DNA from: a virus
Taxonomy: Duplodnaviria > Heunggongvirae > Uroviricota > Caudoviricetes
Length of the DNA stretch: 12,909 nucleotides
IMG/VR virus record: IMGVR_UViG_2579779007_000005
Strand: one strand, 5' to 3'
Numbering within the stretch: position 1 is the stretch's first letter; every line of letters begins with the position of its first letter. Made by a program: the position numbers and the translations under genes. The notes beneath the pieces were generated by a model that searched no databases, was not told the origin of the DNA, and saw nothing but the letters and a program-made list of their open reading frames with translations. Shown piece after piece: positions 7,560 through 12,909 of the stretch.

Positions 7560-8066
7560 ATGAATTTAAGCGCAATGGCATACCCTGATACTTTCATAAT
7601 TAATGGCGAATCATTCAGAGGTAAAAGAAACGCAAAAGAAAACAAGGTATTAATTCCATATACAAATGAACCGGAAGTAACTATTGGTCAACACATTATC
7701 CAGCGTGTCGGTAAAAACGAGATAAATCTAAAAATTATAGATATGAAGTTGCTTCCCAATGGAACCCTCAGACAGGGAACCAACCATCCAAATATGTTGA
7801 CTCTCTATATTGAAAATATCACGGGAAATGAACATATGACGCCAACTAAAAGTAATACATTTAACATTGGTTCAATTAGTGGTGATCAAGTGCAGATAGG
7901 TGAGCATAACCATATGCTGGTAAACATCAGCATCACTGAACTGGTTGAAAAAGTCGCTAAATCGGGGGATGTACAAGCCAAATCAGTATTAAAGCAGTTA
8001 CTGGAAAACAGTACCGTTGCCAGCATTGTTGGGGCTGGCGCAAGTGCCCTAATAGGCTTACTGTAA
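7560..8066 (+). CDS. AT-rich cargo gene of unknown function (168 aa) with a C-terminal hydrophobic Gly/Ala-rich tail; candidate accessory or defence-type effector
   Basis: ATG 7560 with AAGGA SD at a 6-nt spacer. It is the only substantial plus-strand gene in the island and is visibly more AT-rich than its neighbours. The C-terminus STVASIVGAGASALIGLL looks like a glycine-zipper membrane segment. It is bounded by its own promoter region and a terminator. Confidence 0.7.
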   Translation: MNLSAMAYPDTFIINGESFRGKRNAKENKVLIPYTNEPEVTIGQHIIQRVGKNEINLKIIDMKLLPNGTLRQGTNHPNMLTLYIENITGNEHMTPTKSNTFNIGSISGDQVQIGEHNHMLVNISITELVEKVAKSGDVQAKSVLKQLLENSTVASIVGAGASALIGLL

Positions 8067-11140: not shown

Positions 11141-11436
11141 TTCTGCTCTCTCCACGCGGCAATCATGTTTTTCAGTTCCTGTAGTTTTTTATCAACATCC
11201 ATACATGACACATGGTTATTTCTGGAAAGCGGGATTTCCCGCCTGAATCTGCTAATAAAGATCTCCACGTTCAGCGAACTATGAAATGAATAGCCATCAC
11301 GAATAAAATACACACGGTCAAACATCAGTTCTTTTACCGTTACTCTGTTACCGTTCTTATCCAGATAAATAGCGCCGGGGATAATTTTGGGGTGTGCATA
11401 ACCGCTGGCAGTCAAGCCAGATAAATATGTTCTCAT
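11137..11436 (-). CDS. Hypothetical protein (99 aa)
   Basis: ATG 11436-11434 lies 6 bp after the upstream stop, with a GGGGA SD-like sequence. Its TGA (11139-11137) overlaps the primase ATG (11140-11138) in an ATGA arrangement. Confidence 0.55.
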   Translation of the reverse strand: MRTYLSGLTASGYAHPKIIPGAIYLDKNGNRVTVKELMFDRVYFIRDGYSFHSSLNVEIFISRFRREIPLSRNNHVSCMDVDKKLQELKNMIAAWREQK

Positions 11437-11442
11437 GATTAT

Positions 11443-11763
11443 TTATCCCCGATTTGAATCAGTATTCGCTTTCTTTATGGCATTTAATGCATCTGTGGCA
11501 TTTTCAATGGTGCACCGTAACGAAATATCAAACTGCCCAAGCATTGCCAGTAACAAACCGATATTACCCATATCAATGCGCATAGCCTTTTCGTCATAGT
11601 CCTCATTTTCTGACGCATGCCACATCAGGCTACCAATTGACGCAATACCCATTGATATATTGTCAGTAGCCCCATCCGCAGCGGAATAAACCTTTTTAGC
11701 AATATCATGCTCACAGTTAAAATGCGGATTAATCAGGTACTGGTAATTTGACATATCAGGCAT
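11443..11763 (-). CDS. Hypothetical protein (106 aa)
   Basis: ATG at 11763 overlaps the stop of the upstream 67-aa gene (translational coupling); stop TAA 11445-11443. No recognisable motif. Confidence 0.55.
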   Translation of the reverse strand: MPDMSNYQYLINPHFNCEHDIAKKVYSAADGATDNISMGIASIGSLMWHASENEDYDEKAMRIDMGNIGLLLAMLGQFDISLRCTIENATDALNAIKKANTDSNRG

Positions 11764-11959
11764 GGCACACCCCCTGACGAATACGGGCGGCGAATACCAT
11801 CACGCAGCCAGCCGGGGATTGCTGGCGTGCTTCCTGTTCGCTGGTGGCCACGATGTGAATCACGCGCGGTTGTGCGGTGCTCAGGGCGATAAAACGCCAG
11901 ATGTATTTATTCAGGTCGTGCGAGTCCCGCCCTTGCGGGTGTGTGGTATGATTTCTCAT
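11756..11959 (-). CDS. Hypothetical small protein (67 aa), first gene of the minus-strand early operon; faintly reminiscent of Icd-like small proteins found near primases in P4-like islands (unverified)
   Basis: ATG 11959-11957 preceded by GAGGT SD; stop TGA 11758-11756 overlaps the ATG of the next gene at 11763. This is the only credible part of the 306-aa track ORF 11756..12676. Confidence 0.45.
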   Translation of the reverse strand: MRNHTTHPQGRDSHDLNKYIWRFIALSTAQPRVIHIVATSEQEARQQSPAGCVMVFAARIRQGVCHA

Positions 11960-12055
11960 AGCTACCTCGATACGCTTTCTATCGTTGGTGGTTAGAAGCC
12001 CGGTTAGTGTTAGCGCACTGCCGGGTTTCGTCGTTTCTGCACCTTGCATCAACAA

Positions 12056-12108
12056 GGTGTTAAACACCAATTTAAGCCTAGGTGTTAAACACGTCAAGTG
12101 TTGAACAC
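12056..12108. promoter_or_regulatory. Three near-palindromic operator sites (GTGTT-N-AACAC) in the divergent intergenic region
   Basis: GTGTTAAACAC at 12057-12067, GTGTTAAACAC at 12082-12092 and GTGTTGAACAC at 12098-12108. The third overlaps the candidate -35 of the RHH promoter. Confidence 0.5.
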
Positions 12109-12129
12109 TTATTTTTTTTCCTGCATACT
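12101..12129 (+). promoter_or_regulatory. Candidate sigma70 promoter of the RHH gene
   Basis: -35 TTGAAC (12101-12106), 17-bp spacer, -10 CATACT (12124-12129); lies about 30 bp upstream of the ATG at 12159. Confidence 0.3.
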
Positions 12130-12158
12130 GCATTTGTTTTTTGTAAGGGGTACACAAC

Positions 12159-12338
12159 ATGGCGACAAAAGCAGTAAACGCAAAATCACAAACAGTTGCG
12201 GCAAGGGTTCCGCATGAAGTTATGAACAATGTTGAGGCGGTAAAAATGCCTGGTGAAAGTACAGGGCAGTTTGTAACAGCAGCATTAAAGCGAGAAGTTG
12301 AATACCGCCAGCGTCGCAAGGCCAAAGAGCAGGAGTAA
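12159..12338 (+). CDS. Small ribbon-helix-helix (Arc/CopG/MetJ-type) DNA-binding protein, putative repressor; 59 aa, below the ORF-track cutoff
   Basis: ATG at 12159 is preceded by SD AAGGGG (8-nt spacer) and an in-frame TAA at 12144-12146; stop TAA 12336-12338. The sequence TVAARVPHEVMNNVEAVKMPGESTGQFVTAALKREVEY fits the RHH pattern (beta-strand with R-V-P, helix A, G-x-S/T turn, helix B). Three palindromic operators lie directly upstream. Confidence 0.5.
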   Translation: MATKAVNAKSQTVAARVPHEVMNNVEAVKMPGESTGQFVTAALKREVEYRQRRKAKEQE

Positions 12339-12395
12339 CCATCACCAGCGCCGTGGTGCGGTGAACTGTGGCGCACAGGGTTACAGGTATCTACG

Positions 12396-12575
12396 ATGAC
12401 TGACAAATCATTAAAGAAATTATCCTCATCCAAGAAAAAACAACGCAAAAATGCGGTAAACGAACATGAACCGGAGAGATTCGCACCATGTGCGTTTATC
12501 CTTGAGAAGTACCTTAAAGAGTATTCTAGGAAAATACGCTCATTGCAGGCATGGCAGCGAATCGAGCCAGACTGA
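12396..12575 (+). CDS. Hypothetical small basic protein (59 aa), possibly co-transcribed with the RHH gene
   Basis: ATG at 12396 with only a weak AGG SD; stop TGA 12573-12575. It lies between the RHH gene and a plus-strand terminator at 12640-12667. Lys/Ser-rich N-terminus; no recognisable domain. Confidence 0.25.
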   Translation: MTDKSLKKLSSSKKKQRKNAVNEHEPERFAPCAFILEKYLKEYSRKIRSLQAWQRIEPD

Positions 12576-12639
12576 TAGCATTGCCCACCAGCCAACAACC
12601 TGGTATTCTGGATATGCTCAAGTTTAGTGTTATGCCACT

Positions 12640-12667
12640 GGCGACCGCCCTTGGTCGCCTTTGTTTT
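12640..12667 (+). terminator. Rho-independent terminator for the plus-strand RHH transcript
   Basis: Stem GGCGACC (12640-12646), loop GCCCTT, stem GGTCGCC (12653-12659), followed by TTTGTTTT. The minus strand has no T-run after the same hairpin, so it is probably unidirectional. Confidence 0.5.
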
Positions 12668-12684
12668 ATGTGTCATAGCCCCCC

Positions 12685-12909
12685 CTACGCTGCCTTACCT
12701 GAATTAACGCGGTCACGGCTTTGCACCCAGTCCATAACTTCGGAAAGCAACCAGCCTACAGAACGCCCCCCAAGATTACGGCGAGACGGAAAGCCCCCTT
12801 TCTTCTCCAGTTCGTAGCGTGTAGTACGGCTGACGCCTGTTAACTTACGACATTCATCCTCACGAATTACGCGATCTGTTAGTGATTGAAATTGTGTATT
12901 TTGATTCAT
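12685..12909 (-). CDS. alpA: AlpA-family (Xis-like winged-helix) transcriptional regulator; its ATG is the last 3 bases of the window, so the N-terminus could extend beyond the edge
   Basis: 74-aa ORF ending at TAG 12685-12687. The segment LTGVSRTTRYELEKKGGFP...GGRSVGWLLSEVMDWV matches the HTH plus Trp-containing wing pattern of prophage AlpA/Xis-like regulators. It sits at the head of the replication genes, as in PICI-type islands. Confidence 0.7.
   Translation of the reverse strand: MNQNTQFQSLTDRVIREDECRKLTGVSRTTRYELEKKGGFPSRRNLGGRSVGWLLSEVMDWVQSRDRVNSGKAA

Follow-up and report, generated by a model that had tools for sequence, protein, structure and literature searches.

A candidate ribbon-helix-helix repressor and three dyad operator sites facing the early operon of a capsid-forming phage-inducible chromosomal island

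Introduction

The window analysed in this study, the whole of a 12,909-nucleotide (nt) stretch of viral DNA (IMG/VR record IMGVR_UViG_2579779007_000005), is a 12.9-kb capsid-forming phage-inducible chromosomal island (cf-PICI) of Escherichia coli. Between its alpA gene and its early operon lies a small plus-strand gene for a 59-amino-acid (aa) protein of predicted ribbon-helix-helix (RHH) fold. Upstream of this gene we found three 11-base-pair (bp) dyad sites, O1 to O3, which sit on the promoters of both the RHH gene and the divergent early operon. Across related loci, the sequence class of these sites co-varies with residues 1-18 of the RHH protein. These two facts together support a repressor-operator switch: dimers of the 59-aa protein on O1-O3 probably repress the early operon, and the segment 11944-12668 would then be a maintenance or immunity-like module of the cf-PICI.

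The Gram-positive satellites, namely the Staphylococcus aureus pathogenicity islands (SaPIs) and the PICIs, are understood in terms of a master repressor, Stl, and of phage proteins that inactivate Stl. For the Gram-negative PICIs, the founding paper calls the global repressor "unclear" and states that why the Gram-negative and Gram-positive elements differ in their induction strategy "is a mystery" (PMC6092414). In the same work AlpA was established as an activator that is induced by helper phages; it is required and, when overexpressed, sufficient for the induction of the Gram-negative island EcCICFT073 (PMC6092414). The founding preprint on cf-PICIs does not mention a repressor (10.1101/2022.09.08.507074), and a later survey reports C4/isrK-type immunity RNAs in some Gram-negative PICIs and no protein repressor (PMC10111431). 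A literature search combining PICI with 'ribbon-helix-helix' returned nothing relevant. We regard the 59-aa RHH protein as a strong candidate for such a repressor, which had not been known from Gram-negative PICIs.

Candidate operators on two divergent promoters

The features of the divergent region are as follows.

12057-12067, no strand assigned: candidate operator O1 (GTGTTAAACAC), starting 1-2 nt past the early-promoter -10 and lying over the predicted minus-strand start site
12082-12092, no strand assigned: candidate operator O2 (GTGTTAAACAC), within the 17-nt spacer of the early promoter and abutting its -35
12098-12108, no strand assigned: candidate operator O3 (GTGTTGAACAC), just upstream of the early-promoter -35 and on the -35 of the RHH promoter
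12069-12097, minus strand: early promoter, with -35 TTGACG (12097-12092), a spacer of 17 nt and -10 TAAATT (12074-12069)
12101-12129, plus strand: RHH promoter, with -35 TTGAAC (12101-12106), a spacer of 17 nt and -10 CATACT (12124-12129), read from the sequence
12159-12338, plus strand: gene of the 59-aa RHH protein, the proposed repressor, YlcI/YnfO family, with AAGGGG 8 nt 5' of the ATG

The three GTGTT-N-AACAC palindromes of the original prediction were found exactly where it had placed them. There is no further match in the window, even when one mismatch is allowed, and O1-O3 are also the sole matches in 29 kb of the near-identical island and its flanks in E. coli A41. When the window was shuffled with its dinucleotide composition preserved, none of 200 shuffles reached three or more matches with one mismatch allowed (mean 0.38). 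The 59-aa open reading frame (ORF) with its strong Shine-Dalgarno sequence was confirmed, and the divergent early operon (67-aa, 106-aa and 99-aa genes and the primase) is arranged as had been described, the sites lying between this operon and the RHH gene.

The early promoter, which faces the icd-like gene, the 106-aa gene, the DUF4222 gene and the primase gene, was the sole promoter-like (sigma-70) site that the scanner returned in 11700-12909. The RHH promoter scores 8/12, which is under the scanner's threshold. O3 covers its -35 hexamer, in agreement with the overlap originally proposed. Among 73 distinct upstream regions from related loci, the early -35 TTGACG is kept in 65, mostly with a TAnnnT-type hexamer 17 nt away, and about 60 have the RHH -10, [T/C]ATACT, at the same distance from the start codon (-35/-36).

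The placement of O1-O3 on both divergent promoters is that of repressor sites. Since the early promoter matches at five of the six positions of its -35 and has a 17-nt spacer, it should be active without an activator, and because it should be active in this way it would need a repressor. The promoter geometry suggests in the same manner that the sign of the regulation is repression.

Conservation of the layout

Related loci were collected from one-genome-per-species contigs (31 loci) and from IMG/VR (80 loci). Once partial loci were excluded, the first tabulation covered 106 loci and the quantitative analysis 102, the latter comprising 66 distinct combinations and 11 site classes. The species sampled include members of Edwardsiella, Pectobacterium, Kosakonia, Yokenella, Serratia, Xenorhabdus, Proteus and Klebsiella.

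These Enterobacterales loci share one layout, with sites about 102 nt and 77 nt before the RHH start codon. Almost every locus has a site at the O2 position (-77), and GTCAA, the -35 of the opposite strand, invariably follows it. A further copy, at about -32, comes directly after the plus-strand -10 in the majority of loci. The O3 position is absent from most of the other classes, which have the copy after the plus-strand -10 instead. Within the window's own class, represented by 27 distinct upstream sequences, no arm base of O1-O3 changes; variation is confined to the central base and to the flanks. In O3, all 11 positions are invariant within this class.

It is scarcely conceivable that chance alone produced the palindromes and the small ORF in an AT-rich intergenic region. 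Short palindromes are of course common, and the ORF has just 59 codons and no Pfam family. No shuffle gave three copies, however, the layout is kept in 102 loci across genera together with a conserved protein family, and the operator arms are invariant within the class. These facts refute a chance origin.

The positions of the sites also bear on a second interpretation, in which the RHH protein binds them mainly as an autoregulator or fine-tuner of its own gene and of orf59b, the next gene of its transcription unit, and AlpA essentially alone controls induction. In EcCICFT073, one of the islands with the module, AlpA is indeed needed for induction, and its overexpression is enough to cause it. 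Most classes also have one site directly on the start of the RHH promoter, an arrangement that is classic for autoregulation. However, two of the three sites in the window, as well as the two positions best conserved in all classes (-102 and -77), sit on the early promoter and not on the RHH promoter, and an early promoter that is active without an activator needs a repressor. We therefore regard this interpretation as unlikely, and prefer repression of the early operon by the RHH protein.

The 59-aa protein

The original prediction had treated the ORF as unannotated, but RefSeq already names it 'YlcI/YnfO family protein' (NCBIfam NF041551), and it matches this family with 59.7 bits against a cutoff of 30. 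The label conveys no function. We found no functional study of YlcI, YnfO or DUF3950 in the literature, and a survey from 2026 gives the gene in cf-PICIs merely as a 'prophage-associated protein' (PMC13612085).

The RHH signature proposed for the protein is supported by an AlphaFold model of the monomer and by the strand pattern of the family alignment. The model resembles RHH proteins such as Arc, CopG and TacA. It shows an N-terminal beta-strand, helix A, a turn and helix B in about 45 residues, followed by a 10-residue basic tail and no further domain. Its structural matches are TacA2 (4.1), Arc (4.0, 19% identity), Rv0298, CopA(SO), MazE4, ParD2, NikR, PrpA and TraM.

Sequence searches returned little. 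A Pfam scan gave no RHH match for the window protein or for 33 homologues, neither phmmer nor a profile search found a match among PDB sequences, Foldseek found none for the model in the PDB, and tblastn found none in 50,697 phage genomes. The alignment to Arc by hhalign has a probability of 5%; its register is as expected, with R16-x-P18-x-E20 on R13-x-P15-x-E17 of Arc. In an exhaustive profile search, 1.84 billion representatives yielded no more than 81 clusters. P0152, a distant protein of the same hidden Markov model family, reaches Pfam RHH_1 exactly at the gathering score, 20.5 bits.

The family alignment has an invariant R16, hydrophobic or small residues at positions 13, 15 and 17, and variable polar residues at positions 12 and 14. 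Because of this residue pattern at positions 12-17, the segment appears to be an RHH strand with alternating inward and outward residues and an outward face that reads DNA; the variable outward positions track the operator sequence. Residues 1-18, namely the N-terminal arm and the beta-strand with residues 12, 14 and 16 outward, are thus likely to be the DNA-reading part. The dyad symmetry of the sites (5-1-5) and their free central base are compatible with the sheet of an RHH dimer entering the major groove.

The window protein has no match to Pfam DUF3950. A homologue at the equivalent position in Klebsiella pneumoniae ATCC 13883 (locus L029, 3740-4210) does match this family, with 29.9 bits against 25, and its locus has three 13-bp sites, GGTGCACCCCCAC, GGTGGGGGTACAC (inverted) and GGTGTACCCTCAC. 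This homologue and its sites seem to tie the DUF3950 family to the same putative operator-binding role.

Co-variation of the sites with the N-terminus of the RHH protein

The sites fall into at least ten sequence classes, each of which is paired with one type of RHH N-terminus. The pairings are listed with residues 11-16 of the RHH protein first, except for the last line, which concerns the N-terminal arm.

QT[VLI]AAR: GTGTTRAACAC (the window's class)
[KR]KLEAR: GTGTCAGCCAC
QALKAR or QSLKSR: GTGTGGYCCAC
QSVTAR: GTGTCTTACAC
KR[IF]D[AV]R: GTGTSGGACAC
KKIDVR: GTGTCAGACAC
QK[LV]Q[AT]R: GTGGAYTCCAC
N-terminal arm MTRD.. (versus MATK/G..): outer bases CTGG..CCAG (versus GTG..CAC)

In the 102 loci, the uncertainty on the site class that is left once RHH residues 1-18 are given is 0.12 bit. 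By the same measure helix A leaves 0.55 bit, the C-terminal part 0.63, the Icd-like protein 1.07, and the hairpin of a candidate small RNA (sRNA), which lies 25 bp from O1, 0.53.

A comparison of the window with locus L106 is informative. The 106-aa protein, the DUF4222 protein and the primase of L106 are 99%, 94% and 99.5% identical to those of the window, yet L106 belongs to the KKLEAR/GTGTCAGCCAC class. In the pairwise alignment, identity is about 99% over 11300-12003, falls to about 55% over 12004-12300, and is nearly complete again over 12305-12338. Within the divergent stretch lie the terminator hairpin of the sRNA, both promoters, the operators and the codons of RHH residues 1-48. On the early-operon side the two islands are 99% identical, and they differ only by the exchange of a cassette of some 300 bp that carries the operators and RHH residues 1-48. 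The hairpin types are shuffled relative to the site classes, which shows that recombination has broken linkage 25 bp to the left of O1. Among the loci sampled it never parts the operators from the N-terminal codons 60-150 bp to their right.

A further locus, from Edwardsiella hoshinae NBRC 105699 (L002, 3740-4180), encodes an RHH protein identical over 58 of 59 residues and has the same three operators. Its AlpA-type protein, the C-terminus of its Icd protein and its early genes are all very different, and an extra 231-aa gene lies between the RHH gene and alpA. In this case the cassette appears to have moved independently of the remainder of the island.

These data also allowed us to consider whether another protein of the island might bind the palindromes: AlpA at activator sites, the Icd-like protein, or the primase or another initiator at origin iterons. 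AlpA is the published regulator, phrog_6196 and phrog_1743 of the Icd-like family are labelled 'transcriptional repressor' in PHROGs, and PICI origins do contain iterons (PMC6092414). However, one and the same Icd-like protein (M[RL]NHTTHPQGRDSHNLNKYIWRF...) is found with five site classes. AlpA proteins 92% (L098) and 86% (L093) identical to that of the window go with other classes, whereas identity spans 27-100% within the window's class, and the primase of L106 is nearly identical to that of the window in spite of its different class. None of the three co-varies with the site class, and we rejected them as binders of the sites; binding by any of them is highly improbable. The co-variation points instead to the RHH protein.

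A candidate antisense RNA at the start of the early operon

Next to O1, the window contains a candidate sRNA on the plus strand, opposite the start of the early operon.

11756-11959, minus strand: icd-like gene, 67 aa, first gene of the early operon (NF033153, E=5e-20; RefSeq annotation)
11944-11952, plus strand: likely sRNA promoter with an extended -10 (TGGTATGAT), 7 nt upstream of the sRNA
11960-12038, plus strand: candidate cis-antisense sRNA with stem-loops at 11960-11993 and 11995-12029 and a U-rich tail

The candidate is complementary to the icd-like leader, its Shine-Dalgarno sequence and the region of its start codon. The 81-nt stretch 11960-12040 has a minimum free energy of -35.1 kcal/mol (z=-4.9), and in 32 diverse loci compensatory changes occur in 13 of the 20 predicted pairs. 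G.U pairs in the two helices number 53 and 62 on the plus strand and 1 and 1 on the minus strand (115 vs 2). Together with the compensatory changes, this strand bias points to the plus strand as the source of the structured RNA.

No Rfam family reached its gathering score in the window, and neither a C4 nor an isrK immunity RNA was found in it. The Rfam model of SymR (RF01809) gave no match in gathering mode; 11960-12032 on the plus strand scores 32.8 bits (E=5e-4), below the gathering score of 61. The candidate resembles SymR in its length of about 77-80 nt, its two stem-loops and a similar terminal-loop sequence, and also in being transcribed from inside the 5' end of its target with complementarity to the target's Shine-Dalgarno sequence and start codon. 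It differs from SymR not only in this score but also in its target, which is the Icd-like gene and not symE.

Distribution of the module

The module is present in EcCICFT073, the prototype Gram-negative PICI and the island in which the role of AlpA was established. In E. coli CFT073 (NC_004431.1, 1380179-1380899; locus L114, 12180-12900) it lies between alpA and the Icd-like gene and consists of a YlcI/YnfO gene of the QALKAR class, two GGTGTGGCCCAC sites and a homologue of orf59b. The class pairing in CFT073 is QALKAR with GTGTGGCCCAC. Lower-ranked genome matches at about 94% identity, such as that in strain 09-00049, a lettuce isolate, have the same genes. These matches are apparently EcCIEDL933-like islands, so that the prototype cf-PICI EcCIEDL933 apparently carries the module as well.

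The operator-plus-RHH cassette of the window's class (12040-12305) was found at 505 places in 494 of 5,426 complete E. coli genomes, and a 1.2-kb query with the shared flanks at 1,868 places in 1,517 E. coli genomes. The window-class cassette thus almost always occurs as one copy per genome. These counts may point to a tendency of islands that share a genome to differ in class; they are suggestive only, since the search gave one place per record.

Genes around the module

The other features of the region are as follows.

12396-12575, plus strand: orf59b, small gene that follows the RHH gene in the same transcription unit; basic product of 59 aa with the motif ERFAPCAF-LE-FLKE (phrog_21027, E=5e-30)
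12640-12668, plus strand: intrinsic terminator closing the RHH-orf59b unit, with an 8-bp stem of which 6 pairs are G-C and the tail TTTGTTTT
12685-12909, minus strand: alpA (Pfam Phage_AlpA, E=5e-16), the known activator of Gram-negative PICIs

The terminator works in one direction only, as the minus strand has no T-run. The alpA gene, which shares its strand with the early operon and lies upstream of it, is convergent with the RHH unit.

The second gene of the RHH unit, orf59b, has 27 distinct homologues with a median dN/dS of 0.35. It is 'hypothetical' in the CFT073 annotation and absent from the RefSeq annotation of A41, searches of Pfam and PADLOC gave no match for it, and it does not track the operator class. 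Another interpretation is that the RHH protein and orf59b form a toxin-antitoxin-like pair, in which the RHH protein is the antitoxin that autoregulates its own operon and the sites are unrelated to the early operon. Against this, genes like orf59b were found only in E. coli-type loci (57/81) and are missing from most of the other loci that have the RHH gene and the sites, a gap of 57 nt separates the two genes, and orf59b lacks the PADLOC or Pfam match just mentioned. Moreover, the RHH protein has no C-terminal toxin-binding extension beyond its short basic tail, and the positions of the sites fit the early promoter. Such a pair is thus very unlikely, and repression of the early operon remains the preferred explanation of the sites.

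A 306-aa minus-strand ORF at 11756-12676 was rejected as an artefact. Its last 67 codons (11756-11959) make up the Icd-like gene, and the remainder is an unsupported open frame antisense to the RHH unit.

The identification of the window as a cf-PICI is based on its ORFs and on the RefSeq annotation of the A41 island, and follows the published definition (10.1101/2022.09.08.507074). The genes on the minus strand are, in order, alpA, the 67-aa Icd-like gene, the 106-aa gene, the DUF4222 gene, a D5-type primase and ssb, followed by major capsid, prohead protease, portal, head-tail connector, HNH, TerS and TerL. Over 11700-12909 the window matches the chromosome of strain A41 at 100% identity. 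In A41 the island is placed between thiM and rcnR and extends into a DUF6387 gene and a tyrosine integrase.

In addition, the capsid gene is separated from the next minus-strand gene by a gap of 740 bp that contains a 168-aa plus-strand ORF (7560-8066), for which Pfam and PADLOC gave no match. As the matching gap in the otherwise similar A41 island is only about 270 bp, this ORF looks like an inserted cargo gene.

Proposed mechanism of the switch

From these features we infer the following scheme. RHH dimers would occupy O1-O3. The inner bases of each 11-bp dyad would be read by the antiparallel beta-ribbon (residues about 11-17, of which 12, 14 and 16 point outward) and the outer bases by the N-terminal arms. 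With O1 over the early start site and O2 over the spacer, their occupancy would block RNA polymerase. The operon of the icd-like, DUF4222 and primase genes, and hence the replication of the island, would then be silent while the island is integrated. Binding at O3 on the RHH -35, or at the +1 site in the other classes, would result in negative autoregulation. The plus-strand antisense sRNA over the icd-like ribosome-binding site might serve as a post-transcriptional lock on leaky icd-like translation.

Induction may be explained by transcription through the module. A helper phage would bring about expression of AlpA, and AlpA would drive minus-strand transcription into the early operon through the convergent RHH-orf59b unit, the terminator of which works in one direction only. 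The read-through would supply early transcripts independent of the repressed promoter and might, at the same time, interfere with expression of the RHH protein.

It is worth noting that several facts weigh against this scheme. In EcCICFT073, overexpression of AlpA alone causes induction and deletion of alpA abolishes it (PMC6092414). Because AlpA is both necessary and sufficient there, control does not lie with the RHH protein alone, and its share may be small. The read-through route of induction is conjectural. The centre-to-centre spacings of the sites (25 and 16 bp in the window, 22-25 bp elsewhere) are not helically phased, so that cooperative binding is uncertain. Finally, the operators and the RHH gene are only 50-100 bp apart, and linkage alone thus predicts some co-inheritance. 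The argument from co-variation rests on the observation that linkage is broken about 25 bp to the left of O1 and never between the operators and the N-terminal codons.

The original prediction envisaged a repressor-operator switch 'in addition to, or instead of' activation by AlpA. The first part agrees with our analysis. The second does not, as AlpA is required in EcCICFT073.

A wider proposal can be put forward only tentatively, and we would not yet give it an even chance. The RHH-operator cassette might be the missing master repressor or immunity determinant of the Gram-negative PICIs and cf-PICIs, including EcCICFT073 and EcCIEDL933. In that case at least ten orthogonal specificities would be moved by recombination between otherwise identical islands, and co-resident satellites would be independently regulated. 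Induction by AlpA would act by transcription both through and against the cassette and not by simple promoter activation.

If the switch operates as proposed, it would provide a first function for the YlcI/YnfO (DUF3950) family and explain the silence of a near-consensus early promoter. A further prediction would be a set of orthogonal pairs, each of a repressor of about 60 residues and an 11-bp operator, which are potentially useful as genetic parts. How AlpA overcomes quiescence would become a defined experimental question.

Comparison with known systems

The kind of mechanism proposed here, an RHH repressor with dyad operators, is already well known. The interest of the case comes from its setting in a satellite, from the exchangeable specificity cassettes and from a first functional hypothesis for the YlcI/YnfO family. 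The closest analogues appear to be the immI region of P22 (Arc/Mnt and sar RNA), CopG and RNA II of plasmid pMV158, and the immI region of P1 (Op51, c4 and icd-ant).

The immI region of P22 has the RHH repressors Arc and Mnt, the divergent promoters Pant and Pmnt, and the antisense RNA sar. The island differs from it in several respects. There is no detectable sequence homology (the hhalign comparison given above), and the island has one RHH gene where P22 has two. The operon in the island starts with an Icd-like gene and carries a replication primase, whereas that of P22 encodes an antirepressor. The island has three single 11-bp dyads, and P22 has one 21-bp operator that is bound by a tetramer.

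In the copy-number control of pMV158, the RHH repressor CopG and the antisense RNA II act on repB. An RHH repressor and a small antisense RNA that jointly restrain a replication-initiator operon are also what we propose for the island. However, copG is the first gene of the operon that it represses, while the RHH gene of the island is divergent from its presumed target. CopG has one 13-bp pseudo-symmetric element, and pMV158 has no layer of helper phage and AlpA.

The immI region of P1 comprises the C1 operator Op51, the c4 antisense RNA, icd and ant, and P4 has an immunity based on CI RNA. The proposed resemblance is that of an operon with an Icd-type gene first, which would be restrained both at its promoter and by a small RNA on its leader. 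The candidate RNA of the island differs in being cis-antisense from the opposite strand, and not processed from the sense leader. The window has no C4/isrK match, and the proposed protein repressor is an RHH protein and not C1.

Stl (Rpr) of the SaPIs and Gram-positive PICIs has the same role as that proposed here, being a satellite repressor that is divergent from the replication operon and keeps the island quiescent (PMC6092414). As in that system, the RHH gene is divergent from the replication operon, and the candidate sites are in the intergenic region. Stl is nevertheless a larger helix-turn-helix protein, which has a sensor domain bound by a helper-phage protein and whose gene is adjacent to int and co-directional with it. 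The island has instead a 59-aa RHH protein with neither a helix-turn-helix nor a sensor domain, encoded on the plus strand, opposite to the minus-strand genes int and alpA. Helper-dependent expression of alpA is the only induction signal given in the literature. SaPI Stl would therefore seem to be the closest analogue in role, although not in family.

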